From the NCBI GenBank assembly GCA_030691985.1, contig JAUYDB010000186.1, positions 1 to 34,859 of the forward strand: DNA of 34,859 nt, in the 5' to 3' direction. How positions within the stretch are numbered: the first letter of the stretch is position 1; each line of letters opens with the position of its first letter. Of this stretch, positions 5,690-34,741 are shown piece by piece. Both the position numbers and the translations under genes were made by a program. This DNA is from Candidatus Omnitrophota bacterium (GTDB taxonomy: Bacteria > Omnitrophota > Gorgyraeia > 2-01-FULL-45-10). Below the pieces are notes generated by a model. That model did not search any database. It was given only the letters and a program-made list of their open reading frames with translations, and was not told the DNA's origin.

Positions 5690-6963
5690 GGGCCTTTCCG
5701 CCGGTATTCCGCACGCTTCGTTACAGAAACTTTCGGCTCTTCTTTATGGGCCAGGGCGTATCTTTGGTCGGCACATGGATGGAACATGTGGCGATGAGCT
5801 GGCTCGTATATCGTCTCACAAATTCGCCTTTTCTTTTAGGCGTAATGGGATTTTTGACTCAAGCCCCGACGTTTATCCTGAGCCCTTTTGCCGGGGTCAT
5901 GTCCGACAGGTGGGATCGCCGGCGCGTCATCATCATTACCCAGACGCTTTACATGATCCAGGCGATGGCCCTGGCGTTTCTCGCTCTGACGGGGACTATC
6001 GCCGTATGGCACCTGATTGCGCTGGGCGTATTTGTCGGATGTGTGAACTCTTTCGATATACCCTGCCGCCAGTCCTTCATAGTGGAGATGGTGGATGATA
6101 AAGAAGACCTTGGCAATGCCATTGCCTTGAATTCCCTGATGTTCAATGCCGCGCGCCTCGCGGGGCCTTCCCTGGCAGGGGTGATCATAGCCATGTCAAG
6201 CGAAGGCGTATGTTTTCTTATCAACGGCATAAGCTTCATCGCCGCGATAGCCGCGCTGTGCTTCATGAGGATTAAAAAACACGAAACGAAGCCTGAAAAT
6301 ACCCATATCCTCGAAGACCTGAGAGAAGGGTTTTCTTATGTGTACGGGTTTAAACCTATAAGATTTATACTCCTGCTTCTTAGCGTCGTAAGCTTTACGG
6401 GTATATCCTACGTGGTGCTCATGCCGGTCTTCGCCAGGGATATCCTTAAATGCGGGCCCGGGACATTCGGTATTATGATGGCGTCGACAGGGCTGGGCGC
6501 GCTCGCGGCTACAATTTACCTCGCTATGCGGAAGAGCGTATTAGGATTAAGCCGCCTGATACCCGTATTTTCATCAATCTTTTCGATAGGGATTATTGTG
6601 TTTTCCGTCTCCCGCGCCCTGTGGTTTTCGTTATCGGCTTTGGCCGTCGCGGGTTTCGGGATCATGGCCCATATGGCCTCGAGTAATATAATACTGCAGA
6701 CTATCGTAGACGACGATAAGCGCGGCAGGGTCATGAGTTTCTATACGATGGCCTTTATAGGCGTGGCGCCGTTCGGGAGCCTTTTTTCGGGAATCATGGC
6801 CTCAAAGATCGGGGCTACAAATACCCTGATCGCCGGCGGGTCAATCTGCGTCATCGCGTCTTTAATCTTCGCGAGGAAATTGCCGGTAATAAAAAAAGCG
6901 ATACATCCCATATACAGGAAGATGGGTATCATCCCCGAAGTCGTCTCCGGCATAAGCCCCTAA
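5686..6963 (+). CDS. MFS transporter, MFS_3 / EntS-like family (425 aa)
   Basis: N-terminus FRNFRLFFMGQGVSLVGTWM...SPFAGVMSDRWDRRRV is characteristic of the MFS_3 family. About 12 hydrophobic helices are visible. The GTG start overlaps the hydrolase stop (GTGA). Confidence 0.85.
   Translation: MRAFPPVFRTLRYRNFRLFFMGQGVSLVGTWMEHVAMSWLVYRLTNSPFLLGVMGFLTQAPTFILSPFAGVMSDRWDRRRVIIITQTLYMIQAMALAFLALTGTIAVWHLIALGVFVGCVNSFDIPCRQSFIVEMVDDKEDLGNAIALNSLMFNAARLAGPSLAGVIIAMSSEGVCFLINGISFIAAIAALCFMRIKKHETKPENTHILEDLREGFSYVYGFKPIRFILLLLSVVSFTGISYVVLMPVFARDILKCGPGTFGIMMASTGLGALAATIYLAMRKSVLGLSRLIPVFSSIFSIGIIVFSVSRALWFSLSALAVAGFGIMAHMASSNIILQTIVDDDKRGRVMSFYTMAFIGVAPFGSLFSGIMASKIGATNTLIAGGSICVIASLIFARKLPVIKKAIHPIYRKMGIIPEVVSGISP
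6928..6963 (+). repeat. Left copy of the direct repeat (3' end of the MFS gene), candidate attL-like junction
   Basis: ATCATCCCCGAAGTCGTCTCCGGCATAA (6928-6955) is identical to 32280-32307. The match extends to 36 bp with 2 mismatches. Confidence 0.85.
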
Positions 6964-7006
6964 GACTCCAAGCCTGCCGCCTCTTCAGAAAAATCTGATA
7001 AAATTA

Positions 7007-7035
7007 TTGACAGGTTGTGATACAAGGAGTAATAA
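7007..7035 (+). promoter_or_regulatory. Sigma70-like promoter candidate for the island operon
   Basis: TTGACA (7007-7012), a 17-nt spacer, then TAATAA (7030-7035). An AAGAGGAG Shine-Dalgarno at 7074-7081 precedes ATG 7091. This is a sequence match only. Confidence 0.35.
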
Positions 7036-7090
7036 TAAGCACATATAGGTTAAGGGAAATCCAAAAGTATGGCAAGAGGAGCTTGCGGCA

Positions 7091-8710
7091 ATGGAGCCAC
7101 TGGACAAGCGCGCTATTACCGAAGAAGTAATTAATCTATTAGATAAATGGCCGAGGGCTGTTAAGGATTGGCCTCACTGGGATAAAGAGGCCAGGCAATA
7201 TCTTGGGCATTGTCTGCGTCTATATCCCAAGGGAGACGAGCGCAGACATTTTGATAAATTCAGTGAGGTTGTCTCGCTTTTGACGGCCAGAAAACAAAAC
7301 GCGACCAACAGCAAATTATTTTTGGAACATCTTGACACAGAGGACATCGCTATCGGTTTTCAGATATTTTCCAGGAAGAGGGAAGGGTATGAGCGGTGTG
7401 TAAGGGCGCGCCTGTGTGAAATCTTCAAGCGCGCGTTTAACGACGCGGAAAATCTGAAGCCGGACAATAGCGGTGAGACCAGAATTGGAAATGCGATCAA
7501 GGCTTTAGAAGAACCCGTGGATTTCGCTGACGGCCATTTCCGGGACTTGGTAAAGCATGTTCAGCTTCTTCCTGAAAAAGGCCGTGACAGGCCCAACGAT
7601 GTCCGGCACCTCGCGCGATTATGGCCTTTGGCGAAGGACCTGGAAGATATCCTTGCCGCGCCTATGGCGCTACGCAGACACGACTACATAGACCTTACCT
7701 TTGACATACTTTATTTCTCCGACGAAATAGATGAATATCGTGACGTGGTAATGGCACGCCTTGCCGATTCCTGCGTCAGTCATTGTAAGGAGATGTCGGT
7801 ATTTTGGACTTTGCAATATAGCGGCTCCACGGACAGGGATATGGTGACAGATTTCCGCAATTTAGCGGACAAGTTATTTACATCCTCCGGGCATGGCGCC
7901 GCTTCCAAAAAAACACTCGTGGGTAATCTGTCCGATTTTCAGCGGCATATGTTGATCTCGCTTAGAAAGATTTCTGAGGACATGAAACAACCTTTCGATC
8001 ATGTGTGGATAGCGAATATCCTATATGCTATTTTTGATGGCGACAAGATAAGGCAGGGCAGTTTGATCGCTGTCAGAGACATGATAGGGAACCCGGTAAT
8101 TGACCTTCAGAGATTGAAAGAAGCGCTTTTTAGAATGGCGGAATCAAGCGACGTTAAGGCGGAGGCATCGAACTATTTTTTTGAGGCGATGCGCGATTTA
8201 ATGTTGAGTGATAATGCTGATACCGGCCAGTGCGTGGAAAAAATGCCGGACGAAGCGCGGCGTTTGATAAACAAGTGCAAGGAATTTTACGATCAGGATA
8301 AAGTGGATTCTCTGGCAGCAGCATTATTGCAGAGCGTGGATAAGGATCCGGACCCTGCGGCTCGCCACGGCAGATATATAGAAAAAGCGCTCTGGCTCGC
8401 GTCTCTGTACGGAGAGAAAGAGGTTTGCCGGGAAGCAGCTTGGACTATGAGCAGGTACTATGTTCTTCAGGGAAAGACGGAAGATAAAAACTACTATTTG
8501 ATCCATACGAAAATCGTGCTCAGGTTATTACAGAGCGTGAACTATAGCCGCGACGAAGCGGATAGATTGACGCGCGATATTCAGTCCTTTTACCAGACGG
8601 ATAGCCTTCGATGCGCCGCGCCTTCGGCATTCGGGTCGGACGGGGCCGATATCGAGGAGAAGGTCAAGGAAAATGCGGCTATCTGCCGGCGTGTGATAAA
8701 ATTATTGTGA
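7091..8710 (+). CDS. Hypothetical cytoplasmic protein (539 aa), first gene of the island operon
   Basis: Long ORF with a good Shine-Dalgarno, no signal peptide and no TM segment. The composition looks helical. I recognise no motif. Confidence 0.7.
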   Translation: MEPLDKRAITEEVINLLDKWPRAVKDWPHWDKEARQYLGHCLRLYPKGDERRHFDKFSEVVSLLTARKQNATNSKLFLEHLDTEDIAIGFQIFSRKREGYERCVRARLCEIFKRAFNDAENLKPDNSGETRIGNAIKALEEPVDFADGHFRDLVKHVQLLPEKGRDRPNDVRHLARLWPLAKDLEDILAAPMALRRHDYIDLTFDILYFSDEIDEYRDVVMARLADSCVSHCKEMSVFWTLQYSGSTDRDMVTDFRNLADKLFTSSGHGAASKKTLVGNLSDFQRHMLISLRKISEDMKQPFDHVWIANILYAIFDGDKIRQGSLIAVRDMIGNPVIDLQRLKEALFRMAESSDVKAEASNYFFEAMRDLMLSDNADTGQCVEKMPDEARRLINKCKEFYDQDKVDSLAAALLQSVDKDPDPAARHGRYIEKALWLASLYGEKEVCREAAWTMSRYYVLQGKTEDKNYYLIHTKIVLRLLQSVNYSRDEADRLTRDIQSFYQTDSLRCAAPSAFGSDGADIEEKVKENAAICRRVIKLL

Positions 8711-8733
8711 TGATACAATCCAGGGACGCATAA

Positions 8734-17234: not shown

Positions 17235-20200
17235 ACAAGGATACCTTTACTTTGAGGCCGGCGCTGGCGGCCGCGGGCGCATTTTTGGCAGCCGTTATTT
17301 TTTTCAGCCATCCTTCTGTCGCGGCCGCGGGCGAGAGCACCGCGCATATCGATCTCAAGATGATCCTTGAAGACAACCGCCGTGATTTTTATTCAGAAAG
17401 GCAGGATCTCCTGCTCGACATACTCCGTACTATGATAAACCAGGTACCCGAGGGAAGCGAAAGCGAAGATGTCGCGAAATGGGTGCAGGATTTTACTGAA
17501 AAGGGATTTATTAAGGGATCGTCCGGTGAATTTCTTTTTGCCGACGCGAACGCACAGCTTTGCGAAAAATTTCTCGGTATCGTTCAAGAGTCCGGCTGTA
17601 GACTGGACCGGAATTTCCTGAGGCGTATATATGAGCGGTGCCAGGCCGGTCCCGAAGTGATTGAATTTAAATATTTTTTGGAACCGGCCTGGCTTAATTT
17701 CAGCTCAAACCTGGCCGACGAAGAGACATACCAGGCGCTGTCAGGCCTCTTAGACAGGATGAGCGGCGCCGGTAAGATGCGCGAGTACCTGATGCTATTA
17801 TATTACGGTTATAAAACGCATGGCAAGCACGAGACCGATTTCGACGGCCGCATAGACGGCGGATTATTGGGATCGCCGTCTTTGAGAGCGGAGGACATAA
17901 AGGATCTCTATGGAGTTCTGAAACAGGATTATTGGGGCAGTTTTCAGATAAAGAGGGACTGGATGCTCGAAAAGGCCGCATGGAGGCTTTTCAACGATTT
18001 TTCGCCTCAGGACTGGGCCGGGAAGATTGAGCCAAGCATAGCGCTCGATCTCGCAAGCATATTGACAATGGCCGGAAAGACCAATGACCATGACAGGATT
18101 TCGCTTGTTGATTGGTTTAAGAAGATGGGGGCGTGCATAAAAAAATCCCCCGCAGACATCCCCGTCCGGTCTCTATTGACTTATTTTATCTCAAATTCGG
18201 GGCTTTCTTTACGCGAATCGTTCCAGGCGCTCCGTGAATTCTTCGCTGATGACCAGAGGATGTTTACGGCGCTCCATGAGTCGCCGCCGGATTCATCCGC
18301 GATGGGGATATGGAATAAAGATAAAGAGAACGCCGCGGAATGTATGACATTATTAGATGGTTTTTTCCAGATAGGCAGTGCGGGGGAATGGGATGTTGGC
18401 CTATGGGACTGCCTCAGGGATTATTACTACGTGCCGCGTCCGACGCAGGTCAGAGAGAGGCTTTTTAACACGATCATAAAGCCGATTTACGAAAGCCGGG
18501 AGCTTGCCGCCAACCCTGTCAGAAAAAGAATGTTACGCGAGGCCGAAGAGAGCAAATCTTTTATGCTCGAAAGCCATCGCTATGAGATCGCGCACCATCT
18601 CCTGACGACCTCCCCAATGACCGACATGGCCGCGATAGAAAATAAGGATAGCGATACCTTATCGTTCGCGATCCAGGTCTTCAATAACCTCGCGCCGGAA
18701 AGCGCCGAATTATACGATTCAGACTCGTTGAAGAAAGCGATAAAATCGTCCGGCGAGACGATGCCTCAAGATAAGCCGGAGCGGATCTTGCGTTATGTCA
18801 ACTTTGTCTTATCTGAACCACTTCTTCTCATGTGTTATGCCTTTATGGGAAAGACGGATCTCACCGGAGGCGTTGCCTTTTCGCTTGATAATGAGGCGCA
18901 GGTCAGGCAGTTTGAGGCGGTATTGAGAAGGATCGTGCAGATCAAAGGCGACCTGATGCAAAACTACGGCAGGAGTCTCGGCCGTGTCAAGGCGCTCGAA
19001 AAGATAGCGGAAGAGATCATCAGTAAGATGGAAGACGCTATTCAGAGGAAAGATACAAAACAGATCGTCAATCTGATCCGCCTCACCTTAAAAATAACCG
19101 TTATATTGGAGGACGACTCGTATATCGATCGTATTCTTCTCAGTTTGCGCAAAGACGTGTTTGGAGTAGGGGATGATCCGTACCTGTTTGTGCAGTTGTC
19201 GGGCGCGGATCTGGATGCGAAGGCCGGTTATTTTCATCTGTTGTGCTCAGACGATCTGGTGAGCGCGCTAAGGGCGGTCGGAAAAAGGAAATATTTCGAA
19301 AAATTTTACAGGATGCTTTATATGCCCCTTCGCAGCATTTATGGCTTTTTCAACAAGGTCGGGGCCGAGCCATATCTGAAATTTGTATCAGAATTTACGG
19401 AAGGCAAGTATGACACGCCTGAGGATGTAGACATGAACGGCCTGTTCGATGCGGAAGTAGAGAGCCTTGGCTCGATCCATGATGAGACGGGCCGTCCGAA
19501 GTATATCGATGCCGAAGAGGCTATCGCGTCCTTTATCGCGGGTCCGAATTTCGAAAAACTGGGCATAAAATCATGGAACGATCCACACCGCATAAATATG
19601 AACAAGAACGTCAACTTAGGGGTGCTATACCGTCTTCTGAATAAGACCAAAGTTAACGACTGGGCCATGGCAGAATGTCCTGACAATACCCGCGCGAAAA
19701 ATTATAGACAGGTCGCGGAGGTGTTTATTGAAAATATGGAAAATCCGGACCGTATGGACAAACCAGTCTCCTTGTCCGGACAGCCGGAGCTATACTCAAA
19801 ATGGGATTTTTTCGTCTTCGTCCGGTCTCTTGTCGATCTATATGAGATATACGGATATCCTCTGCCGGTTACTGCGTCGTCGTCGACAATGTTTACGGGC
19901 GCGCCGGAAGGCGGTATTAAACGCGACCCCCTGATAGGGAATATAAACGATGTGGCAACGAGAAAGCTCGACGGGACTTTGCGCGCTTCCGTGATAGAAA
20001 AGTTCGTGGGCGCGCCGGAGGCCAGCCAGACCGCGGGCTCCGGCAGGTCTGAGATGCTGGGGGAAACCACCCTCCTTCTACCCAATTCGGACGATAATAA
20101 CGCGGGCGAGAAAACAGAGCTCGATAGATACTGGGTGCTGAAAGAAGGCCTGTTCAAGCGGATAAGCTCGTCCCTTGACGATGCGGCCGCATCCGCGGAT

Positions 20201-22189
20201 AAACTAAGGCGATTGATACTGTTATGCCGTATGGAGACCAGCGTTTATGGTCTCGATAACGAGAAGGCGGGTTTTGGATATGAGCGCGTCAGATCGAAGT
20301 ATATGGCCCCCCTTGGAAAAGTTGACCAGACGACACTGCGGCTTGAGGAATTCCGGCTGAAAGAGGTGAATCAGCCGAACGGCCGGGAGGCCAATACCGT
20401 CCTGGAGCTTGCGCCGGTGGTGCAGCAGCTTGTCGATGTCCTGTCCAAAGATTACGACCTGATGAGGGTCCTGACAAAGGGTAAGGCTGATTCCGTTTCT
20501 CAGGCGATCCTCGCCTTGTACAAGGCCGCCAATCCTAATAACATACTCGAGGAATTAAAAGACGACCACGTCGAAACGCTATGGTTTTTAACGACAAGGT
20601 GCCGCAATGCCCTTGCCGACTCGGCGGGCCGGCTCGAGAGCTTGAGCCAGGAAGAAAAGGCGGCTACGGCGGGTATCATGTCATCGCTCTTTGTAATCTA
20701 CAGTTATTTCATGCCCTACATCGATTCCGGGTTTAACGTAGGCGCCATCTTCGATGTTAAAAACGCGCTGCCGGTATTTTGTATGCTCAATTACGATATC
20801 AAGGCGCCGGCAACGAAGCTCCTCGGTGTTTATGAGAGCTCCTGGAGCGGTATAAAAGGCGCCGTGAGGATGAGGCCGTTTGAGCTGGAGACGTTCCTGA
20901 TATGCCACAATTTCTTGCCCATATATCTTCTCGAGGCGGGCCTTAATGACTCCACGCGGTTTCTTAAATTGGTTGAGGGCAGACAGATCAGCGTCAGGGT
21001 GTATAATTTCCGATTGTTGTGGGAACGGGAAGACAGGGCGACGGTTTCTATGGAGCATCTCTGCGGCGAGATAATGGGCGGGATGGAGAATAACAAAAAT
21101 ATCCTGACGGCATCGGCCGAATTAACGGACGATGTGTACCTGGAGTATTTTTTCGGGGATATGCGGCGCGTTCTGAACAAAAAGCCCAAGTTTGAAACCC
21201 AAATGCCGCAGAATTTTGATTCTGTTGTGCAGAGATTGGCCGTGTTGCCCGAGGATGACAGGGTTGTCAGGCTTAAGAGCGATCTGGAACGAAAGATTTC
21301 TGAATTGGCCGGTTCGGCTCAGTCGGAAGAATCGGATAAGAGGAAGAAACGGTTTGAAGAGGCGCTCAACGATGTGAGCGGATTAAAAGGCAAGGTAGAT
21401 GCTGTCCTGGACAAGAGATATGAATATTTTGGAAAGGTTCTCGCGAAGCAGTTCAGATCGGTTTTTACCATCCAGAAGGCCTGCGAAGAGGCGGTCGAAC
21501 ACGTGAACCGGCGATCGCCGCGGCAGATGTTTAAAGCGATGGTTCAACCAGCCGATGAATATGCCTCATCGAGGCTTTCGGCAGAAGTGTGGCGGCGGTA
21601 TAACAAGTTCTATGAGGCGGCGCTCTTTGATGAAAAAGGAGGCTTCGCGCGTGAACTGGAAGAGCGGATGGTAAGATTGTTTTACGAACCGCCTAAAAAT
21701 AACGAAAGAAAGGCCGATTACAAGCGGTCGCGTCTTGTAAAATTTGCGCAGTTTCTTGACGGCGGTGAGATAAAGGATGAGCCCGCGAAATTGAAAGTGA
21801 CTACGGCTGGGTTTGCGGCCTGTGCCAATAAAAGCGCGGACACCCGGTCAGCCGTAGACTCAAAGTATATTGAGGCCGGCGCGCGTTTTTTAAAGTGCCT
21901 GTTTTGCGGTGAGTACATGGAGCGCGGCTATCCGTTCATCGGGGATATAGTTTGGGACAAAGACGAAAAAGGCCGGATAACTGTTAAGCCGTTACCTTAC
22001 GATGATAAGACAGGTGAAGAGGAAACGCGCGACCTGTTGAAATGGATTTTTGACTGTGGCGAGAAATACGGAAACATACCGGAGCTCAGAAAATTGTTCT
22101 TAAGGCAGGATGTTGTCATGGGAAAGCCGCAGCCGGAACCGGCGGCTCAAACCGTCCAAAACACGGAGAAAGACGAGGCGGTTGTATGA
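17231..22189 (+). CDS. Giant secreted hypothetical protein (1652 aa)
   Basis: The GTG start overlaps the upstream stop (GTGA). Signal peptide is LAAAGAFLAAVIFFSHPSVAAAGES. The ORF is uninterrupted for 5 kb. No motif recognised. Confidence 0.75.
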   Translation: MNKDTFTLRPALAAAGAFLAAVIFFSHPSVAAAGESTAHIDLKMILEDNRRDFYSERQDLLLDILRTMINQVPEGSESEDVAKWVQDFTEKGFIKGSSGEFLFADANAQLCEKFLGIVQESGCRLDRNFLRRIYERCQAGPEVIEFKYFLEPAWLNFSSNLADEETYQALSGLLDRMSGAGKMREYLMLLYYGYKTHGKHETDFDGRIDGGLLGSPSLRAEDIKDLYGVLKQDYWGSFQIKRDWMLEKAAWRLFNDFSPQDWAGKIEPSIALDLASILTMAGKTNDHDRISLVDWFKKMGACIKKSPADIPVRSLLTYFISNSGLSLRESFQALREFFADDQRMFTALHESPPDSSAMGIWNKDKENAAECMTLLDGFFQIGSAGEWDVGLWDCLRDYYYVPRPTQVRERLFNTIIKPIYESRELAANPVRKRMLREAEESKSFMLESHRYEIAHHLLTTSPMTDMAAIENKDSDTLSFAIQVFNNLAPESAELYDSDSLKKAIKSSGETMPQDKPERILRYVNFVLSEPLLLMCYAFMGKTDLTGGVAFSLDNEAQVRQFEAVLRRIVQIKGDLMQNYGRSLGRVKALEKIAEEIISKMEDAIQRKDTKQIVNLIRLTLKITVILEDDSYIDRILLSLRKDVFGVGDDPYLFVQLSGADLDAKAGYFHLLCSDDLVSALRAVGKRKYFEKFYRMLYMPLRSIYGFFNKVGAEPYLKFVSEFTEGKYDTPEDVDMNGLFDAEVESLGSIHDETGRPKYIDAEEAIASFIAGPNFEKLGIKSWNDPHRINMNKNVNLGVLYRLLNKTKVNDWAMAECPDNTRAKNYRQVAEVFIENMENPDRMDKPVSLSGQPELYSKWDFFVFVRSLVDLYEIYGYPLPVTASSSTMFTGAPEGGIKRDPLIGNINDVATRKLDGTLRASVIEKFVGAPEASQTAGSGRSEMLGETTLLLPNSDDNNAGEKTELDRYWVLKEGLFKRISSSLDDAAASADKLRRLILLCRMETSVYGLDNEKAGFGYERVRSKYMAPLGKVDQTTLRLEEFRLKEVNQPNGREANTVLELAPVVQQLVDVLSKDYDLMRVLTKGKADSVSQAILALYKAANPNNILEELKDDHVETLWFLTTRCRNALADSAGRLESLSQEEKAATAGIMSSLFVIYSYFMPYIDSGFNVGAIFDVKNALPVFCMLNYDIKAPATKLLGVYESSWSGIKGAVRMRPFELETFLICHNFLPIYLLEAGLNDSTRFLKLVEGRQISVRVYNFRLLWEREDRATVSMEHLCGEIMGGMENNKNILTASAELTDDVYLEYFFGDMRRVLNKKPKFETQMPQNFDSVVQRLAVLPEDDRVVRLKSDLERKISELAGSAQSEESDKRKKRFEEALNDVSGLKGKVDAVLDKRYEYFGKVLAKQFRSVFTIQKACEEAVEHVNRRSPRQMFKAMVQPADEYASSRLSAEVWRRYNKFYEAALFDEKGGFARELEERMVRLFYEPPKNNERKADYKRSRLVKFAQFLDGGEIKDEPAKLKVTTAGFAACANKSADTRSAVDSKYIEAGARFLKCLFCGEYMERGYPFIGDIVWDKDEKGRITVKPLPYDDKTGEEETRDLLKWIFDCGEKYGNIPELRKLFLRQDVVMGKPQPEPAAQTVQNTEKDEAVV

Positions 22190-23271
22190 CTCGATTTAAC
22201 GACATGGAGGCGTTTCTGGCTTATTTCGGCTTGGTGGCAGACTACTGGAAAAATATGGTCCGGCATGGCGCTAAAGCGGATGATTACCGGCGCATCGTGG
22301 AAAGGTTTATAGAAAAGATGGCGGAGCAAGTTGATACCTGTTTTGCCCAGGAAGCGATAGAATGGGTCGATATGCTCGAATCGGAACCTTTTAACGAGCT
22401 TGTGGATATGGAATCCGTGGCAAAGCGTTTTACTGTCAGGGTCGCGCGCGCCGTGGCGGGAGCTTCCGCCGGAAAACCCGTCGACGCTGTTGAGTGGATA
22501 CGTTTTGTAGATACGCGCAAATTTATTTATGTTCTGAAGAACAAGGCCTATTCATGGGTGGATGAATGTCTTGCGGGTGTATGCGATAGCAGGGTCTCAT
22601 CAGAAGTTGCCAGGGCCGCATACGGCGTTTTGGAAAAAACGGCGCCGCAGGACGCGCGCCGGAGTTCTTTCTGTGAAGGCCTGAATAGTCTTAAACTGCC
22701 TCCGGGGAAAAATATTTGGGAAGCGGGCTCGTTCAGAGAGGCGCTATGGGCCTGTACGATTAACGCGGCATCCTGCGCGCCAAAGATCAAGCGCTGCGCC
22801 GCGGACATATTTACAATGGTAAAGGATGACCCCCATCTTTTTGGGGTATGGGTTGGCGTTTGCGATAAATTCACATCGGAAGGTATAGGTCTTTGGGGCG
22901 GGGACGAAGGCCCTCTTCGGAAGGCGGCGGAGTATCCAACCGCCGGAACATCTCTCGATGGGGTCGCGCACGACAAAACTGGTATCAGCTCTAAAGAGAT
23001 AACCCTCATGTATTTTTATTCCCAGGATGTCCTGCTGTGCCAGCATCAGTCCCCTATAGTGAACAGGGTGACAGGCAGATTGCCCGGCGCGGTTACCGTT
23101 AGACGGCTGGACGCTGACAAAAGAGGTGATAGGCCCCTTTTTACGCGCTTCGGCGTTAAGGTGGTGCCAACACTTATTATCGCAGGTGATGGGTTGGAGC
23201 TAAAACGTTACACCGGGCTCCAGGGCGAGGAGGCTCTTGTGTCGGAGCTGAAAAAAATTGTCGAAAGGTAA
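22186..23271 (+). CDS. Cytoplasmic protein (361 aa) with a C-terminal thioredoxin-fold domain lacking the nucleophilic Cys
   Basis: ATGA overlap with the upstream gene. The C-terminal ~90 aa align by eye to thioredoxin. FYSQDVLLCQ occupies the FWAEWCGPCK position, FGVKVVPTLII matches YGIRGIPTLLLF (cis-Pro retained), and GEEALVSELKKIV matches the C-terminal helix. Confidence 0.7.
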   Translation: MTRFNDMEAFLAYFGLVADYWKNMVRHGAKADDYRRIVERFIEKMAEQVDTCFAQEAIEWVDMLESEPFNELVDMESVAKRFTVRVARAVAGASAGKPVDAVEWIRFVDTRKFIYVLKNKAYSWVDECLAGVCDSRVSSEVARAAYGVLEKTAPQDARRSSFCEGLNSLKLPPGKNIWEAGSFREALWACTINAASCAPKIKRCAADIFTMVKDDPHLFGVWVGVCDKFTSEGIGLWGGDEGPLRKAAEYPTAGTSLDGVAHDKTGISSKEITLMYFYSQDVLLCQHQSPIVNRVTGRLPGAVTVRRLDADKRGDRPLFTRFGVKVVPTLIIAGDGLELKRYTGLQGEEALVSELKKIVER

Positions 23272-24598
23272 GAGCGTGCTTACGAAAAGTATATTTTGGA
23301 CCACGATGGTGGTGTGCGTCGCGGCCTCTTTACCTTTATGTTTACGCGCGCACGCTGAGGAAAGCATGATGGACCCATGGGCAACCTCGTTCCATGATCA
23401 GGTCAAGAGGTCTAACGACGTTTACGTTAAAAATAACATTCTTGTTCACCTGGAGTCGGTTGATAAGCTCAATAAGGAGATACGCGAGGCATCGCTTTCA
23501 CGGTTTAACACCGGCCTTGACCTTGGCGACGCGAAGGAATCCGATATCGATAAAGTCATAGCTAGTCTCGTTGCGTTCCAGAAGAAGCATAACGCCCGTC
23601 TCGAAGGATGGGCGGGGAAAAATACCGCCTTCGGGAGTTTTGTCGATCCGCTTAAGATGCGCGCCGCGCAGGTGAAGAGCCTCAAGGACGCGCGTTTTCC
23701 ACAGCCATGGCCTTTTGCGGCCATACACTGGTATCCACGCGCCCGAAAATTAAAATTGGAAAACCAGGAAATACCGAAAGACGGACTCGGGTTTAAACCC
23801 GACCTGTGGCAGGACGCCGACGCCCTGACCCAGAAATACGCGTTATTCAGCTTCATGCGCAAAACCCTCAACGTCCGGCAGTTTGAAGAGGCCTTCCTTG
23901 ATGATCAAACGGGTTATAAGTCCTTTTGGAAAATCTCATCCAAGGCCATAAATTTTAAACGTTGGCGTTATCAGGATTATTACATCTACCGCTATATATC
24001 TCCATTAGGCTTGCCCGCAGCTGAAAAAGGAAACCTGAAGTTCTTTGTCCTGGTCCAATGCGCGTTATCCAGAGGAACCGATAAATTTCAGGATTTTTAC
24101 AACGCTAAACTCCGATTTTTCGCGGATTTGACGGAAGAAATGAAACGCGAAGATTGTGTGAGAATGGCCGCAAGGACTTACATGGATTTGTACGCCTTCG
24201 TATGCCGTTCGTTTCCGTGTGTCAGCGCGTTTCGGATTAAGGATGCCGCGGCGGGCGCCTCGATATATGAATTTCTGGACGGCTATCCCGGAGATAAGCC
24301 GGCGAGAATGGAGTTCGGCGAAAACTCACCGGCAGGTATCGCGTTCAGGCTGTACGAGCGGCTTAATACCTCAAGCCGCGGCTCGCAATCCCAGAGGGAG
24401 CTTACGGAACGGATATTTTCGCCGATCCTTCTTCTTCAGTTCCGGCTGCCGGCCGATTTTTCAAACAGGCTTACGGATTTCCCGTATGAAGATATCAAAG
24501 TGGGTTTCAAGGGCTACCTCGATTTTTATGATGCGCTTACCGCGCCCGGCCCGGTTTTCGGCAAAAAGGCATGGACGATAAAAGGAATTTTCAGGTGA
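23258..24598 (+). CDS. Secreted hypothetical protein (446 aa; TTG start, alternative GTG at 23276)
   Basis: Signal peptide FWTTMVVCVAASLPLCLRAHA-EES. It is coupled to the neighbouring genes. No motif recognised. Confidence 0.7.
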   Translation: MSKGKSVLTKSIFWTTMVVCVAASLPLCLRAHAEESMMDPWATSFHDQVKRSNDVYVKNNILVHLESVDKLNKEIREASLSRFNTGLDLGDAKESDIDKVIASLVAFQKKHNARLEGWAGKNTAFGSFVDPLKMRAAQVKSLKDARFPQPWPFAAIHWYPRARKLKLENQEIPKDGLGFKPDLWQDADALTQKYALFSFMRKTLNVRQFEEAFLDDQTGYKSFWKISSKAINFKRWRYQDYYIYRYISPLGLPAAEKGNLKFFVLVQCALSRGTDKFQDFYNAKLRFFADLTEEMKREDCVRMAARTYMDLYAFVCRSFPCVSAFRIKDAAAGASIYEFLDGYPGDKPARMEFGENSPAGIAFRLYERLNTSSRGSQSQRELTERIFSPILLLQFRLPADFSNRLTDFPYEDIKVGFKGYLDFYDALTAPGPVFGKKAWTIKGIFR

Positions 24599-27303
24599 AG
24601 ATCAGAGCCACAATCAGCGTTTTTACATCTCTTATTTTTTTGTCCGTCCTTATCGGCATATTTTCGATATTTGTGTTTCAGAAGTCGTTTTTGCCTTTGT
24701 CGGGCCCGGGTGAAAACGGCAAAGGCTGGGCCGATGATGTCATGACTTTTTATGAATCGGCGTCCGAGAAGACTCTTGAGGAGGCTTATCGCTCAAACGT
24801 CAAACGCATAGAAATCCGTCCCCAGGAAAATTCAAGCCGCTATCACTGCGCCAGCCCGTGCAACGAAGGCCTGGCGGGCGCGGTAGTTAAGAAGCTTTAT
24901 AATGGCCGGTCTGAAAAGATTCCCGAGGTTTTGTTTTGGCGTGAGCCGTTATTTGCGAGCTCATCCTGCCGTGGGATTCTTTATTTTTGCAATTGGCTGA
25001 CCGCGAATCTGCGCTTTCTTTCCCCGCAAAAAGGCAAAGGCACGCCGGGCCCTTGCTCTATGGGATTATTCAGGATGCGCCCTGACGGCAGGGCGGAACC
25101 GGCAAAGGAACTTACAAGCCAACCAACACTCTACCTGACTATAGAGATCAGCGATGTAAAGATGCATGCCGGGCAAAATACCTTTAAAGCGGAGTTTTGT
25201 CTGCGCGCCGATGACGGGGATCCGAAAAAAGGCGCGGTTATTTTGAAAGAGTCCTATAAAGGGGCGACCACGCAAATCTTCTGGTTCATCAGGCAAAAAT
25301 GCCCCGGATGGTTCATGTTTGTGAATATCGTACTGATCTTCATGCTTTCCGGTTTTCTTTTTTGGTTTCGGAACCTGCCATATCCCGCCGTCAAGATAGG
25401 CCTCCTCTGCTGTATGCTGGGGCAGATCTATGTCATGGCGCTTTTATTATTATCTCCAATTCCGCGGGAGCAGCTGCAGTTTTTTCATGACCAGACGAAA
25501 ATTTTCTATCTGGTTGATATAAACAGCGAGATCAGATTCGCGCCCGAAAGGTCTGATGGGCAAAAGGCCGGTCCCGATTATCTCGCCAGGCGCCTTGAGG
25601 AGAGGATCAGCGAGCGCGTCGTGGGCCAAAAACCCGGCGAGCTAATGGCGTTCTGGAGATGGTTATGGTCGCGATACAGCATAGGAGCGATTTACCGGCC
25701 GCGCAGGTTTGAGCTGAATCGTCCGTGTGTCATGGACAAATATGAGTTTTCCGGGTTTGAAAAGGATGGGTGGAATTACCTGGGGGTTGTATCCAGGGGA
25801 ATGGAGGACAGCGGTAATTTTACAGCCTCAAACAATGCCTCTATCCTGCGTGAGGCACGCTTAGTTAAGCCGCAAACCGAGCTCAAAAATGCCCTGAAAC
25901 GCGAAGCGCAGGAAAGCGCGAACGGTTCGGCGATGAATCTTGCGCTTGTACTGACAAGCGCGAGCACATCATCTTATAAAGACGTGCTTGAGTTTATGGA
26001 GCCTGCCGAGGCCGCGGCAAGGGATGGCCGTGACCTTCGGGTATTTACTATTTTGGTTCCTTCGATACCGACAACCGGCGCAGACAAATTTTATGATTTC
26101 GAGAACGGGAAAGCCGCGCTCATATCTCTGGAGTCGGACTATATCCTTCCGCTGAACAGCCGCGCATATAAAGCGGATGAACTGGAATCCTTATTAAGAA
26201 AACATGGGATAGAACGTAAGAGCCGCGCCGGAGGCGAACCACAAGTTATTAATCTGCGTTCCGGCCTATATGATATTCCTAATATCAGCGTTGAGGATAA
26301 GGACTATTGGGATACGCCGCGCGACCTTGGTGAATTAAGGCAAAAATACCTGTTTGTTGGGCGGGAGAAAATTGACGCGGCCTGTGACGAGATTGTGAAT
26401 ATACTCAAAGATATGCTCAGCCGCGGATTCGACAATGCGGAGAGACTCATATTTATCCATGTGATCGGCCGTATACCCGTCTTCTGGCTTGCTGTTATAG
26501 CGCTCGCGTCCTACATATTCGGTTTTTTCGCTTTCATCGGCCAATGTAATCCTGTCTTCTTCCGCGAGTTCGAACATGACCCCGCTGTAAGGATTGGCCA
26601 CTATGCCGCGGTGGCGCTCTCCGTAGCGAGCATGGTATTATTCGTTTTCGGAGTGGTCTGGCGCGCGCAGAACCCCGAAGTATGGACGGACTTCGGCGAC
26701 CCCCGCTGGGCTCTCGCGGTCGGTATACTCTGCTGGTTGTCATGGTTTGTAGCGCCGTTCGCATACTTCAAGGTGAGGGGAATAAATGGCCTGAAGGGTG
26801 AAGGGCTTGGCCCGGCGCCGGCCAGATATTGGGCGCTTTCTGTCTGCATGGCAGGCCTAGCGGCCATTTATGCCTCATTCCGGTATATACCGGAAGGCGG
26901 TTTAACCGGATCGAACCTGTTTTGGAAGTTCTGGCTTACATTTTTGCTCGTCAGCCTGACTATCTTCTCGGGACTCATAGCGCCGAAAGGCGATAAGAGT
27001 GTATATGGCGGGATGGGGCATATAGAGTGGTGGCGCAATCCATGGTGGAGCTTCCTTGTTAAGACGCTTCTTATAATGGGGATAATAATACTATTCCGCG
27101 GGGCGTTTCCCGCGACACCAAGCGGATGGAAGGGTATGACGGGCCTGTTTTCGTCGTTCCATCGTTTCGTGTTGACGATAACCATCTTTTGGTCTATAAT
27201 CGGCTTTGCGATTGCCCTTACCGCTAAGCCGATAAGGTTGACATACTGGCTTGGCCCAGCTATCACTGTTGTCGCCAGCCTTGCTCTATTCCTGGGAGGT
27301 TAA
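24571..27303 (+). CDS. Polytopic inner-membrane protein (910 aa; alternative GTG start at 24595 gives a GTGA overlap)
   Basis: One N-terminal TM segment, a ~200-aa soluble region, two TM segments around aa 245-300, a ~330-aa soluble region, then about 8 C-terminal TM segments (for example VFWLAVIALASYIFGFFAFIG, WALAVGILCWLSWFVAPFAYF, FVLTITIFWSIIGFAIALTA). No family recognised. Confidence 0.75.
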   Translation: MDDKRNFQVKIRATISVFTSLIFLSVLIGIFSIFVFQKSFLPLSGPGENGKGWADDVMTFYESASEKTLEEAYRSNVKRIEIRPQENSSRYHCASPCNEGLAGAVVKKLYNGRSEKIPEVLFWREPLFASSSCRGILYFCNWLTANLRFLSPQKGKGTPGPCSMGLFRMRPDGRAEPAKELTSQPTLYLTIEISDVKMHAGQNTFKAEFCLRADDGDPKKGAVILKESYKGATTQIFWFIRQKCPGWFMFVNIVLIFMLSGFLFWFRNLPYPAVKIGLLCCMLGQIYVMALLLLSPIPREQLQFFHDQTKIFYLVDINSEIRFAPERSDGQKAGPDYLARRLEERISERVVGQKPGELMAFWRWLWSRYSIGAIYRPRRFELNRPCVMDKYEFSGFEKDGWNYLGVVSRGMEDSGNFTASNNASILREARLVKPQTELKNALKREAQESANGSAMNLALVLTSASTSSYKDVLEFMEPAEAAARDGRDLRVFTILVPSIPTTGADKFYDFENGKAALISLESDYILPLNSRAYKADELESLLRKHGIERKSRAGGEPQVINLRSGLYDIPNISVEDKDYWDTPRDLGELRQKYLFVGREKIDAACDEIVNILKDMLSRGFDNAERLIFIHVIGRIPVFWLAVIALASYIFGFFAFIGQCNPVFFREFEHDPAVRIGHYAAVALSVASMVLFVFGVVWRAQNPEVWTDFGDPRWALAVGILCWLSWFVAPFAYFKVRGINGLKGEGLGPAPARYWALSVCMAGLAAIYASFRYIPEGGLTGSNLFWKFWLTFLLVSLTIFSGLIAPKGDKSVYGGMGHIEWWRNPWWSFLVKTLLIMGIIILFRGAFPATPSGWKGMTGLFSSFHRFVLTITIFWSIIGFAIALTAKPIRLTYWLGPAITVVASLALFLGG

Positions 27304-27306
27304 TAT

Positions 27307-29094: not shown

Positions 29095-29127
29095 TAAGGA
29101 AGGCCCCCGCGAGGAAGTTAGAGAGCG

Positions 29128-30234
29128 ATGCCATATACGGAAAGCCTTAAGGCCGTTAACAAGGAGGTTTTAAGGCGTATAAACCGCGAAGTTTCGGTGA
29201 GGGCGTCGCGTTTCGCCAATGCGCTGCTCTCCGGCGTATTCCGCGCGATATTTCAGATTGAAAAGGCGTATGAATTCGCCGAGCCCGCCATTTTTCAGCC
29301 GGAACATGAACCTGACAGGATGCTCTTAAACCGGTTAGACGGATACCGCTTGTCCAACCTGCCTATGGCGATAGCAAACGAAGATGTGCTGGTCTCCCGA
29401 TATCAACTCTTTACAGAATACGATTTTGTCGTAGTGGCCGATGTCAGCCAGTCGATGATGTTGTACTGGTGGGGCATATACGGCGGAGATCCTATGCCCG
29501 GCCATACCGCAGAGGAACTTACCGCCGATGTGGAGGCTCATAAGTGGAAGATCCCCGGTGACAGGACAAAGCTTTTTTTGCTCAAATATACGCTGGCCTC
29601 TTTCCTGCATGCGGCAAGGGCGAACGAATTTTTTTCGTACGTCCTGCTCGCCGGAGACAGCAAGATAGAGCTCTATGATTCCCGCAGGGAGCCGAATCTC
29701 GAAGAGACTCTTTTAAGGAACATAGACGAGCATTATGGAAAGCTTGTCACTAAAGGCGGGGAGGAGAGGCCTCAGCTGCAGGAGGCCCTGCGCCAGGTGC
29801 TTGCGAGGCGCCGCCGCGCGATAGTGCTTTGTATATCGGATTTTAATGACTGTCTTCAGCACATAAATGATAAGGGCGGCGCGCGCCTTTCGCAGAATGA
29901 CATAATACTTCCGCTTGCCGAGATATCATCCCGCCACCGCCTGCTCGTTCTTCAGATAAATCACCGCCTTGAGCACGAGCCGCAGGCTGGTGAGGCGACT
30001 TTTGATGTCAAAAATTGCCCGTATTTGAACGGCGAAATACGTTCGGAGCAAAGAGGCTATGCGGTGAGTGATAGGGATCTGGTCTTATACGGAGAGAAAG
30101 TTGATGCGTGGAAAAAAACGCTCGGTGTGAATTTCGGCAAATTCGGCATAAAATGGCAGAGCCTCAGGGCAGGTAAGGACGACGAAAACGTGGATACGAG
30201 GATTTACGAACTCGGCGTCCAGACAGGGAGATGA
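29128..30234 (+). CDS. DUF58-like / vWA-fold protein, MoxR partner (368 aa)
   Basis: It sits immediately downstream of the MoxR gene, the canonical pairing. A MIDAS-like DxSxS motif (VVVADVSQSM, ~29428-29457) and a later AIVLCISDF strand are typical of DUF58. The usual N-terminal RxYxxGD motif is not evident. Confidence 0.55.
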   Translation: MPYTESLKAVNKEVLRRINREVSVRASRFANALLSGVFRAIFQIEKAYEFAEPAIFQPEHEPDRMLLNRLDGYRLSNLPMAIANEDVLVSRYQLFTEYDFVVVADVSQSMMLYWWGIYGGDPMPGHTAEELTADVEAHKWKIPGDRTKLFLLKYTLASFLHAARANEFFSYVLLAGDSKIELYDSRREPNLEETLLRNIDEHYGKLVTKGGEERPQLQEALRQVLARRRRAIVLCISDFNDCLQHINDKGGARLSQNDIILPLAEISSRHRLLVLQINHRLEHEPQAGEATFDVKNCPYLNGEIRSEQRGYAVSDRDLVLYGEKVDAWKKTLGVNFGKFGIKWQSLRAGKDDENVDTRIYELGVQTGR

Positions 30235-30238
30235 AGAT

Positions 30239-31489
30239 ATGTTCAAGATAGTAAATCAGGATATCCTTCTTCGGCTGAAACTTACTATGGATAGAAAGTC
30301 CTACAGCGTTGTAAATATCTGCGGGGCGCAGGATGCGGGCCAGATCGTTCTTAAGCTGAGATCTGACGAAGGCGGCGGTCTCGCAACCTCTGTTTTTCTT
30401 GCCGACGCGGCAGAGAAGTATTCCGTAGACAACACGGGAAAGACGCTCGGCCAATGGCTTGATGAGGAATTTTTGGGCGCTGAAAGCTGTTTGGAAAACA
30501 TCGTTGATGCGTATGCCGATGCGGACGGCGCGCCGCGTTTGGCCGGAGGTGATGGGATGGCGCAGGCATCGAAGACACGCGCCCTGCTTAATCTGGGAGC
30601 GATCCGGACTCTGGGCAATCGATCAAGAGACGAGGTATTATCCCATCTGAAATCATGGCTGGATGCGGATCGGCATATGTGGCAGACGCGGAAGGTTGGC
30701 ATGGACAAGGAAGCCAGGTCAGAATCGATAGATATAATAGTGATGCCGACAGCGAGATTGGAGGGATTGTTTCTTGAACTTAAAAAAGCAAGGGCAGAGG
30801 CCGAGGCGCGTTCGGTCTCTTTGGATGGGGTCAGTATAAGATTTGAGCCTTTTCTCTGCCGCGCCCTTGAAAGGCATTGGACGGAGGTCTTGAGAGGAGT
30901 TGATATTATTCGCGCTATGGGACGGTCTGACAGCGGCGGAATGCGGGTAGATGCGCAAATCCGGGAGGCAAGCCCGCCTGCGGACATTGCTCATAGTAAG
31001 ATTAATATCGCAAGGACATTCAAACACGGCAAAAAAGACGCAGTTTCCGAAAGCGCGGAACCCAGGAAAATCCGGATTTCCGCCGTAACGGACGGGTATA
31101 AAACAGATATTGCGATAGAGTTATTCTTTTCGGTGGCTGCGAGCAAAACGTTCGCGGCCAGAATTATCACTCATTGCGGTATATCGCGTCTGAACCCTAA
31201 AAAGATTGTAAAACAACTGAAGGCTGGGCTTGAAGGGTATCTTAGCGATATGCAGTGGGCGCTGGATAAGTATTTTAAGGATAACATGATGAGCGTCGCG
31301 TCGTACAGGGGTATGGTATTTCAGGATATCGATGAGTTTAAAAAATGGCTGGGAGCGTCGTCAAACGCGGATGATTATAAAATATGCCGGCTCGGTTCGG
31401 CTGAGCAGAAAGGCGGGCCCCGTATCTTAAGCCGTGAAAATCCAGCCGATATTATAGCCGAGTGGCTTCAGGGCATTGCGGCCGATTAA
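30239..31489 (+). CDS. Hypothetical cytoplasmic protein (416 aa)
   Basis: Starts 4 nt after the upstream stop. No signal peptide or TM segment. No motif recognised. Confidence 0.65.
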   Translation: MFKIVNQDILLRLKLTMDRKSYSVVNICGAQDAGQIVLKLRSDEGGGLATSVFLADAAEKYSVDNTGKTLGQWLDEEFLGAESCLENIVDAYADADGAPRLAGGDGMAQASKTRALLNLGAIRTLGNRSRDEVLSHLKSWLDADRHMWQTRKVGMDKEARSESIDIIVMPTARLEGLFLELKKARAEAEARSVSLDGVSIRFEPFLCRALERHWTEVLRGVDIIRAMGRSDSGGMRVDAQIREASPPADIAHSKINIARTFKHGKKDAVSESAEPRKIRISAVTDGYKTDIAIELFFSVAASKTFAARIITHCGISRLNPKKIVKQLKAGLEGYLSDMQWALDKYFKDNMMSVASYRGMVFQDIDEFKKWLGASSNADDYKICRLGSAEQKGGPRILSRENPADIIAEWLQGIAAD

Positions 31490-31503
31490 TCGAGGAGGAG
31501 AGC

Positions 31504-31638
31504 ATGGAAGGTGTAAAAGTTTTGAGGAGCACTCAGATTATAATCTTAGGCATCTGCGTCGCGTTTGCAGCGATTATCTCCAGCGTGATAATTTCGAAGG
31601 GGAACAGAAGATGTAAACAAAGCGGCGATAATGAATGA
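31504..31638 (+). CDS. Small single-TM membrane peptide (44 aa), not in the supplied ORF track
   Basis: Translated by hand as MEGVKVLRSTQIIILGICVAFAAIISSVIISKGNRRCKQSGDNE. A strong Shine-Dalgarno GAGGAGGAG (31492-31500) lies just upstream of the ATG. The stop overlaps the next ORF start by 8 nt. Confidence 0.55.
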   Translation: MEGVKVLRSTQIIILGICVAFAAIISSVIISKGNRRCKQSGDNE

Positions 31639-32047
31639 TATTAAAAGAATTTCTGCGGTTGCAATTATAATTAATTTTATAGCGCTATTCTCAAGCCATG
31701 CTCAGCCAAATATTCCCCGAGAGAACATTCCGAAGGACGCTTCTGTTGAAATAAGGAAAGAGATTGAAAAGTTATATTCTCCCGATGCCATAGAAAGAGC
31801 CGAGGCAGCTATTCACCTTGGATGGATGGGGAGCAAGGCGGCTCCGGCCATACCATTCCTAAAGGCGATGTTGAACGATAACGCCCCCATAGAGTGGGAA
31901 TACGTCGATATCCCGAGATCCGAGATACCGTTATATAAACCATTCACACCCGGCGAAGAGGCGAAAAGCGCGGTAGAATCAATGCTTAAAGAGATACCAG
32001 GGCAAGATCTCGGACCCAGCCAAACGGCAGGAGTGGCGGGAGACTAA
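31631..32047 (+). CDS. Small secreted HEAT-repeat protein (138 aa)
   Basis: Signal peptide AVAIIINFIALFSSHA-QP. A HEAT/PBS-lyase-like repeat is present (PDAIERAEAAIHLGWMGSKAAPAIPFLKAMLNDNAP). Confidence 0.65.
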   Translation: MNDIKRISAVAIIINFIALFSSHAQPNIPRENIPKDASVEIRKEIEKLYSPDAIERAEAAIHLGWMGSKAAPAIPFLKAMLNDNAPIEWEYVDIPRSEIPLYKPFTPGEEAKSAVESMLKEIPGQDLGPSQTAGVAGD

Positions 32048-32279
32048 CTATGGTGAGGTAGAGCGGCTCCCTAAAAAAGCAGGGGCCAAGGAATAGCATG
32101 GGATGGGGGGCAACTACCTTAGAGCTTGCAAGTCGAGGCGTGTATGAATATAGTCAAAATCATTTGGAATAAATTTTTTATCAGAGATGCCGAAGCGTCT
32201 GTTAACGGGTTAGAGGTTTTTGCCGAAGATCTGTTCAGGGCAGGCGCACGTGTGCTGATTTGCGGAGGAGGCGTTACTA

Positions 32280-32315
32280 ATCATCCCCGAAGTCGTCTCC
32301 GGCATAAATCCCTAA
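32280..32315 (+). pseudogene. Right copy of the direct repeat: orphaned 3' fragment of the MFS gene (IIPEVVSGINP-stop), candidate attR-like junction
   Basis: 28/28 identical, then 34/36 identical, to 6928-6963. The reading frame and TAA stop position are preserved. No MFS similarity is seen upstream of 32280, and an in-frame TGA lies at 32256. Confidence 0.8.
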
Positions 32316-32337
32316 AAAATGGGGGACACCCATTTTA
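32313..32337 (+). terminator. Copy C of the AAAATGGG-GGACA-CCCATTTT hairpin, directly after the orphaned MFS stop codon
   Basis: 24 nt identical to 165-188. The position fits the ancestral terminator of the MFS gene. Confidence 0.45.
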
Positions 32338-32390
32338 CTTTCGGAAGATTGAAGTTGATTTTATGCCTTTATCGTGATATTTTACGGACT

Positions 32391-34139: not shown

Positions 34140-34741
34140 CCGGTTTTCCTGTTTCCATGAGAGCATTGATAGAAGGGTTTTCCAGGATGCCTGGAATCGG
34201 CCCAAAGAGCGCCCAGAGGCTCGCTTTCTATATTCTGAGATCCTCGAAGGCCGAAGCCGAGGCGCTGTCGAAGGCGATCCTGAAAGTTAAAGATTCCGTG
34301 AAGTCCTGCGGCGCCTGCAACAATTTGAGCGATGATGATATTTGCGAGATATGTAAAAGCGCGTCAAGGAACAAGGCTTTACTTTGCGTGGTGGAGGAGC
34401 CTAACGACGTTATTACGATAGAACGCGCCGGTTTTTTTCACGGCCTGTATCACGTGCTTTTAGGATCGCTCTCGCCTCTGGACGGCATAGGGCCGCAGGA
34501 CCTGAAGATAAGGGAGCTTCTAGAAAGGGTTAAGAAAGAAAAGTTCAAGGAGATAATTATAGCGACTGATTTCAATTCAGAAGGCGAGGCGACGGCGCTC
34601 TATCTGTTTAAGGTATTAAAGAATTGCGGCGCAAGGCTGACGAGAGTGGCTTATGGAATACCGGTCGGCGGAGACCTCCAATACGCCGATCAGGCAACAA
34701 TAATAAAGGCCTTCGAAGGCAGGCGTGAGGCTAGTAAATAG
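34136..34741 (+). CDS. recR: Recombination protein RecR (201 aa)
   Basis: HhH motif MPGIGPKSAQRLAFY, C4 zinc finger CGACNNLSDDDICEIC and Toprim region LCVVEEPNDV...IIATDFNSEGEATA are present. ATGA overlap with dnaX. Confidence 0.93.
   Translation: MTGFPVSMRALIEGFSRMPGIGPKSAQRLAFYILRSSKAEAEALSKAILKVKDSVKSCGACNNLSDDDICEICKSASRNKALLCVVEEPNDVITIERAGFFHGLYHVLLGSLSPLDGIGPQDLKIRELLERVKKEKFKEIIIATDFNSEGEATALYLFKVLKNCGARLTRVAYGIPVGGDLQYADQATIIKAFEGRREASK

Follow-up and report, generated by a model that had tools for sequence, protein, structure and literature searches.

The stretch considered here is contig JAUYDB010000186.1 in its entirety, a 34,859-bp contig (the window) from a metagenome-assembled 'Candidatus Omnitrophota bacterium' genome; the searches for repeats and recombinases described below cover that contig. 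A gene for a major facilitator superfamily (MFS) transporter is followed by a block of 11 open reading frames (ORFs, called b1 to b11), all on the plus strand, at positions 6964-32279, and then by dnaX and recR. An ancestral locus with the order hydrolase-MFS-dnaX-recR received this block as an insertion that falls precisely inside the final 36 nt of the MFS gene, and the replacement tail and stop codon that this gene now uses come from the inserted DNA.

A pair of direct repeats bounds the block. Their core, the 28-mer ATCATCCCCGAAGTCGTCTCCGGCATAA, occurs at 6928-6955 and again at 32280-32307, on the plus strand in both places and exactly twice in the window. No further copy was found there with up to three mismatches allowed, and 0 were expected in 100 shuffles, so that a match by chance is indeed negligible, as the initial annotation (made from the letters alone) had supposed. 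Both copies run on as xxCCCTAA, with GC in one and AT in the other, and thus form a 36-bp repeat of 34/36 identity with two adjacent mismatches. The search of the window bore out this repeat as first described, together with its shared reading frame and stop: the copies translate as IIPEVVSGISP* (copy 1) and IIPEVVSGINP* (copy 2). At 28/28 and 34/36 identity, with 0 by chance, the pair has the character of an att-type direct repeat. Copy 1 completes the MFS gene in frame and supplies its functional stop codon, which is the restoration of a target gene. The Ser/Asn difference between the copies (AGC versus AAT) also occurs among relatives, and the Asn codon AAT of copy 2 agrees with most relatives' MFS tails. 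Beyond the window, the 28-mer was absent from JGI (Joint Genome Institute) metagenome contigs, IMG/VR and 126 fetched loci, and a degenerate IIPEVVSGI pattern gave no match in IMG/VR or the JGI metagenome contigs.

Relatives of the locus were found by a search of public genomes and metagenomes with the MFS protein, followed by tblastn with all window proteins. MFS homologues of 56-70% identity lie in syntenic contigs, and MFS, dnaX and recR are directly adjacent in seven of them (L002, L047, L048, L049, L050, L054 and L055; the L048 contig ends inside dnaX), with identities of 61-63% for MFS, 56-58% for dnaX and 77-80% for recR. L049 also carries an alpha/beta-hydrolase gene upstream, which gives the window order minus the block, and the hydrolase-MFS order recurs in L001 and L051. 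The spacer between MFS and dnaX measures 45-227 nt in relatives. Their MFS protein ends …GIIPEVASGLNAVNEFSRPPED*, followed by the conserved spacer TTTTATAAGTTGATTTCAAATTCTGGCTATGTTATAAAATAACAC just before the dnaX ATG, and all seven have the uninterrupted longer tail (…AVNEFSRPPED*) joined to the dnaX promoter.

Traces of that older arrangement persist in the window to the right of copy 2. There, CGGAAGATTGA at 32342-52 represents the old last codons and stop (…PED stop), and the dnaX promoter motifs AAGTTGATTT (32352-61) and GTGATATTTTA (32374-84) keep their order before the dnaX ATG. Local alignment (Smith-Waterman) of this region with the relatives beats shuffles, with p of 0.003-0.05. Because the old last codons, the stop and the promoter motifs still lie to its right, these alignments strongly support reading copy 2 as the displaced original MFS tail and 6964-32279 as inserted DNA. 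The window with 6956-32307 taken out can be aligned with five relatives in colinear fashion, starting within MFS and running into dnaX, and removal of the block and one repeat restores the arrangement of relatives that are distant (56-80% amino acid identity). The empty site that had been proposed as a check on an insertion is thus represented by seven contigs, five of them aligned colinearly with a block-free window.

The duplication is 36 nt long and ends at the stop codon. Similarity between the copies stops precisely there, and the flanks beyond are unrelated when Smith-Waterman scores are compared with shuffles. By eye, 6964-7046 looks like the ancestral MFS tail and dnaX promoter, which would extend the duplication to ~115 nt; this longer version was rejected because Smith-Waterman alignment of 6964-7095 with five relatives and with the copy-2 flank did not outscore shuffles (p 0.3-0.9). 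An nhmmer profile built from the tail and spacer of the relatives proved too insensitive, missing even the true homologue.

Table 1. Features of the target locus and of the inserted block, by position in the window
Feature	Position	Strand	Remarks
MFS_3 transporter gene, 425 aa, target gene; last 36 nt are repeat copy 1	5686..6963	+	PF05977, E 1.5e-66
Repeat copy 1 (attL-like)	6928..6963	+	28-nt exact core 6928-6955 plus GCCCCTAA
Block left end, non-coding	6964..7090	+	not significantly similar to ancestral MFS tail or dnaX promoter
b1, 539-aa cytoplasmic protein, largely helical; first gene of the conserved operon	7091..8710	+	
b2, 1464 aa, signal or lipobox N-terminus, YD/RHS repeats	8734..13128	+	PF05593, E 9.7e-28; TIGR01643; TIGR03696
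b3, 1375-aa secreted giant protein	13107..17234	+	12 homologues, 26-53% identity
b4, 1652-aa secreted giant protein	17231..22189	+	37-44% identity in relatives
b5, 361-aa cytoplasmic protein, C-terminal thioredoxin-like domain	22186..23271	+	PF00085, E 1.1e-7
b6, 446-aa secreted protein	23258..24598	+	AlphaFold2 (AF2) pLDDT 87, pTM 0.83
b7, 910-aa polytopic membrane protein, ~10 hydrophobic segments	24571..27303	+	
b8, long MoxR-type AAA+ ATPase, 595 aa	27307..29094	+	PF07726, E 5e-42; PF17863; PF20030
b9, 368-aa MoxR partner, weakly DUF58-like	29128..30234	+	PF01882, E 0.008, below curated cutoff
b10, 416-aa cytoplasmic protein; last conserved operon gene	30239..31489	+	weak homologues in relatives
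b11, 138 aa, signal peptide, weak HEAT-like repeat matches	31631..32047	+	
Block right end, 232 nt, no supported gene	32048..32279	.	only short ORFs without family matches
Repeat copy 2 (attR-like)	32280..32315	+	28-nt core plus ATCCCTAA
Small hairpin, copy of 24-nt repeat	32313..32336	+	-11 kcal/mol, z -1.3
Ancestral MFS-end remnant and dnaX promoter region	32337..32390	+	colinear with five relatives
dnaX	32391..34139	+	PF13177 and other families
recR	34136..34741	+	

The inserted genes (Table 1) form one tightly packed operon, b1 to b10 with gaps of -28 to +33 nt, plus the small b11, which lies a further 141 nt downstream; the block is not typical of mobile elements. Upstream of b1, at 7007-7036, lies a strong sigma-70-like promoter (TTGACA-18-AATAAT, 11/12 matches). 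The 14-mer TGATAAAATTATTG, present at 6996-7009 upstream of b1 and at 8694-8707 in the b1 3' end, is probably a chance repeat. Signal or anchor segments are found at the N termini of b2, b3, b4, b6 and b11. Searches of the block with Pfam, NCBIfam, PADLOC and PHROGs returned no phage, conjugation or replication families, and Rfam recognized only a tRNA-Arg, at 79-155, in the window. The right end holds the ORF 32126-32377 that was at first taken for a remnant; nothing supports this assignment, and the ORF has no family match. A recombinase remnant was likewise sought in 31490-32279, which contains short ORFs only and gave no matches. Nor does b1 qualify as a hidden recombinase: two operons that are free of repeats contain syntenic homologues of it, and neither b1 nor a profile of its four-member family matched any entry in PDB or Pfam.

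Several of the proteins have unusual layouts. In b2, an Rhs-associated core (TIGR03696) at residues 420-501 is followed by a conserved C-terminal part of ~700 aa; the YD-repeat region before the core is short (~400 aa), and the PxxxxDPxGL cleavage motif seems degenerate (NPLNLVDRDG). The giant protein b3 combines an N-terminal helical domain, beta-rich domains and a fold like that of Hint domains and bacterial-intein-like (BIL) proteins. The AF2 model of its residues 1-1200 has a pLDDT of 69, and a segment of it matches intein, BIL and hedgehog Hint domains (Foldseek E down to 1.8e-5, target TM up to 0.79); taken from the model, this Hint-like segment suggests that b3 may cleave itself. The N-terminal part of b5 is conserved in relatives. 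The model of b6 is confident, mostly helical with small sheets, and found no fold match in the PDB (Foldseek, best E 0.24). The ATPase b8 is extended at its N terminus by ~120 aa, and a long insert separates its AAA_3 core, which ends at residue 252, from the lid (516-584); its long-form orthologues are 46-54% identical, and a small subfamily of 490-550 aa shares the long form.

The same operon exists elsewhere. It was reached through the long-form MoxR orthologues (46-54% identity) and the b3 homologues (26-53%), and the comparison set consists of three composite sequences, two from JGI contigs and one from a Brocadiia genome contig. All three carry homologues of b2 to b9 in the window order, with b10 matched in two while the third contig ends there. 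Each also has a b1-like gene before b2. The two JGI versions are 23-26% identical to b1; the Brocadiia gene at that position encodes 710 aa, has no tblastn match and is equated with b1 by position alone. Identities are 35-40% for b6, 29-33% for b7 and 44-54% for b9, and the C-terminal 700 aa of b2 are 42-50% identical in relatives versus 28-35% for the N-terminal part. No counterpart of b11 was found in the related operons. The b6 family comprises 25 clusters among 1.84 billion representative proteins, and the system is therefore rare; literature searches found no published description of a ten-gene system of this kind. Judged from its predicted products, the block probably encodes a rare, conserved and uncharacterised cell-envelope system that would comprise a YD-shell protein, Hint-containing giant secreted proteins, a polytopic membrane protein and a MoxR/DUF58-like pair.

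Neighbours of the operon differ in every contig, and such differing neighbourhoods across lineages, Brocadiia included, are consistent with horizontal spread. In the Brocadiia composite, an IS3-family transposase lies just upstream of the b1-like gene (contig L044, 1552-2603), and a large serine recombinase of 505 aa is encoded ~9 kb downstream of MoxR, with several unrelated genes in between (contig L045, 20700-21569). No repeats link the IS3 end with the serine recombinase end in that genome, and the two genes, though suggestive of mobility, are not tied to the operon.

The surroundings of the insertion hold further repeats. An ancestral order of MFS, terminator and dnaX had been proposed in the initial annotation; the adjacency of MFS and dnaX with a short spacer stands, as it is present in seven contigs, but the supposed terminator is a repeated 24-nt element that folds weakly. 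This 24-mer, TAAAAAATGGGGGACACCCATTTT, occurs exactly at 165-188, just after the tRNA-Arg, and at 32313-32336; 41 nt from the first of these it recurs inverted, at 206-229. Together, the two copies behind the tRNA-Arg fold strongly (-32 kcal/mol, z -6.9), and the element looks like a small repeated terminator or a repetitive extragenic palindromic (REP)-like element. Both direct copies are preceded by the 7-mer CATAAAT, shifted by 3 nt from one copy to the other. On a larger scale, an inverted repeat of 105 nt (90% identity) joins 4634-4738, in the spacer between MacB and the hydrolase, with 34755-34859, at the contig end just after recR, and so brackets the hydrolase, MFS, block, dnaX and recR. 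It was found in none of the fetched loci and is probably a multi-copy intergenic element, since the contig stops inside it.

In relatives, the spacer between MFS and dnaX is a hot spot for small insertions. L002 carries at ~3287-3386 an insert of ~99 nt resembling a miniature inverted-repeat transposable element (MITE); its 14-nt terminal inverted repeats (TCCCGTTAGACCTC) are perfect, 4 nt (TGAG) are duplicated, and it sits at the dnaX start codon and rebuilds it. The same spacer holds additional, hairpin-rich inserts in L047 and L050. In L051 (3400-3616), which has the closest MFS relative (70% identity; its hydrolase, 79%), the tail is shortened (…MVSMIRPPED*); after it come a promoter-like site and the opening of a gene other than dnaX before the contig ends, an arrangement that might reflect a separate insertion at this position.

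How the block arrived is a separate question, and here we give slightly better than even credence to a genomic island of horizontal origin that entered by att-type site-specific integration, its integrase acting in trans or since lost, and that now resembles a cis-mobilizable element (CIME). This interpretation draws support from the exact core, from a new tail that runs as far as the stop, from the old tail left at the opposite end and from the unrelated flanks; the geometry is that of elements that integrate in a gene end and replace that end. Integration by a site-specific recombinase is plausible but unproven. It would have been a conservative recombination in which an attB within the MFS tail paired with a circularised block bearing an attP-like version of that tail; the crossover would fall inside the 28-nt identity, and the recombinase gene would lie elsewhere in the genome or on a helper element, or have been lost. 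The adjacent mismatches, AGC (Ser) and AAT (Asn), would then be heterology that already existed between attP and attB. Had they arisen independently after the duplication, the chance of their being adjacent would be ~2/36 (~1 in 18, by our calculation); that independent mismatches are rarely adjacent, and that Ser/Asn varies among relatives as well, favours the pre-existing difference. The resulting island would be non-autonomous, with its own promoter at 7007-7036, and its deletion by recombination between the repeats should be feasible in principle. Identity of 28/28 in the now non-coding copy 2 suggests either a recent event or a maintained site. Host-like composition, taken together with a recent event, points to a relative of the host as donor.

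A number of observations weigh against such an integration. The absence of a recombinase or transposase from the block, anticipated in the initial annotation, was upheld with Pfam, NCBIfam, PADLOC and PHROGs, at permissive thresholds too, and no integrase or pseudogene remnant of one was found inside or beside the block. The reconstructed attP has no arm-type repeats; it has a weak dyad, with one 10-nt inverted pair at chance level. The comparison of composition that had been suggested as a way to set the block apart did not do so, since GC (50.7% in the block, 49.1% in the flanks), GC at third codon positions (GC3, with overlapping ranges) and tetranucleotide usage (a slight difference in leave-one-out correlations) barely differ. 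The related operons are not flanked by direct or inverted repeats of at least 14 nt, and a single match of 13 nt in each contig is what chance would give. Searches of IMG/VR and plasmid records gave no usable match to the block genes. Finally, a duplicated MFS tail was seen at none of 91 loci of other MFS homologues, within at most 10 kb of downstream sequence, and the MFS tail is not a demonstrably recurrent att site. Of the site-specific island first envisaged, therefore, the insertion and the duplicated tail have held up; the action of a recombinase lacks an integrase, a remnant, arm-type repeats and a clear compositional difference.

Homologous recombination could produce the same arrangement without any enzyme of the block's own. 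In a RecA-dependent, Campbell-type integration, a circle carrying the operon and a short stretch of MFS-tail homology, possibly derived from a loop-out in a related genome with the operon at the same place, would enter by a single crossover within ~28-36 nt of identity. The shared segment would end up as a direct repeat, exactly as observed; the block has no recombinase, its host-like composition would make a relative the probable donor, and 28 nt is near the minimal length for homologous recombination in E. coli. Recombination over ~30 nt is nevertheless very inefficient, the homology stops exactly at the stop codon and reaches into neither flank, the operon lies beside the MFS gene in no relative, and the circle must already have carried an MFS tail, which merely pushes the question back one step. 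We regard this route as unlikely, though with enough in its favour to be kept in view. Distinctly improbable, in our judgement, is an unusually long target-site duplication, in which linear or transposon-like DNA was taken up at cuts staggered by ~36 nt, or template switching occurred in repair, so that gap filling copied the MFS tail and one dinucleotide changed afterwards. The near identity and sharp bounds of the copies agree with this, as do the absence of att-like substructure and the small insertions that L002, L047 and L050 show at the same hot spot. The block, however, has neither terminal inverted repeats nor a transposase, features that together with the 36-nt duplication set it apart from DNA transposons; we know of no transposon family that makes 36-nt duplications, and the end at the stop codon would have to be coincidence.

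It is a longer shot again that the block is an undescribed, self-contained mobile cassette, with b1, b5 or b10 as a new type of recombinase, or that Omnitrophota possess an integrase-free mechanism that moves operons into gene tails; integrative elements without classical integrase or conjugation genes have been reported in this phylum (preprint 10.64898/2026.06.07.730766). An assembly artefact, in which a separate circular replicon of ~25.3 kb sharing the 28-mer was threaded into the chromosomal path, receives very little credence from us. A unit with one shared k-mer on each side is the expected product of such an error, and the contig is metagenome-assembled and itself ends in a repeat. Against this, the final k-mers of common metagenome assemblers are longer than 28-36 nt, so that reads must span both junctions; moreover, the block has no replication, partition or phage genes, and even then the replicon would bear a sequence that mimics the MFS tail exactly, in other words an attP. 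Least credible of all is a block ancestral at the locus and lost in all sampled relatives. Its direct repeats would permit clean deletion, but seven diverse relatives keep the uninterrupted tail and dnaX promoter, the tail remains right of copy 2 in the window, several independent losses would be needed, and the origin of the repeat would still be unexplained.

Whichever route was taken, the locus offers a clean, base-pair-resolved case of the acquisition of a whole operon in an uncultured phylum, with a pre-insertion state that can be reconstructed from relatives. It would also illustrate how a complete ten-gene envelope system may be transferred as a unit that itself carries no mobility genes. 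If the integration was indeed of att type, the 28-36-nt site provides a handle for finding the acting recombinase elsewhere in the genome. Of greater value, perhaps, is the cargo, which is rare, conserved and entirely uncharacterised and combines a YD-shell protein, a Hint-containing giant protein, a b6 that lacks a fold match in the PDB and an unusually long MoxR ATPase. Its spread across lineages of the Planctomycetes-Verrucomicrobia-Chlamydiae (PVC) group suggests a selectable function.

Comparison with known systems places both the cargo and its vehicle. With its YD repeats and Rhs-associated core in b2 and its Hint-like fold in b3, the operon resembles RHS/YD-repeat and Hint polymorphic toxin loci, and b8 with b9 recalls the chaperone pairs formed by MoxR with VWA (von Willebrand factor type A) or DUF58 proteins. 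In contrast to RHS toxins, the long region of b2 after the core is its best conserved part, without a variable toxin tip, and the next gene is the conserved b3, with no immunity-like gene there; for these reasons b2 is not a classical polymorphic toxin. Among elements that borrow a recombinase, the integrative mobile elements exploiting Xer recombination (IMEX), such as CTX phage and the gonococcal genetic island, use host XerC/D at the 28-bp dif site, and like them the block has no recombinase of its own and flanking repeats of ~28 bp. An Xer/dif model was rejected all the same: the repeat lacks a dif-like ATAA-N6-TTATG core (none occurs in the window), the site lies in a coding gene tail, and cumulative GC skew climbs steadily across the window with no switch, unlike at a replication terminus.

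Closer parallels are found among CIMEs, defined as elements that retain attL and attR and have lost their genes for integration and transfer (PMC5704250). The block shares with them att-like ends and the lack of mobility genes. It differs in that CIMEs are remnants left by integrative and conjugative elements (ICEs) or integrative mobilizable elements (IMEs), often in tandem with a functional element, whereas the block has neither mobility remnants nor a tandem partner. Its state is not that of CIME decay either: the genes are tightly packed (gaps of -28 to 141 nt), the flanks are MFS and dnaX, and the operon is intact and elsewhere free of repeats.

The ends themselves most resemble those made by e14 and phage 21 at icd of E. 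coli, where the element restores the end of its target gene (PMC6379469). There, as here, insertion falls in the last codons, the element brings a near-identical tail and stop, attL and attR are direct repeats, and the displaced original tail persists at the far side as a pseudo-end. The duplicated stretch is 36 nt here versus 163 nt at icd, and e14 and phage 21 are prophages with their own integrase beside the att site, whereas the block has no integrase, excisionase or phage gene. The cargo operon is previously undescribed as far as literature searches go; its vehicle belongs to an already known class, islands that lack an integrase and have att-like ends within a gene tail.

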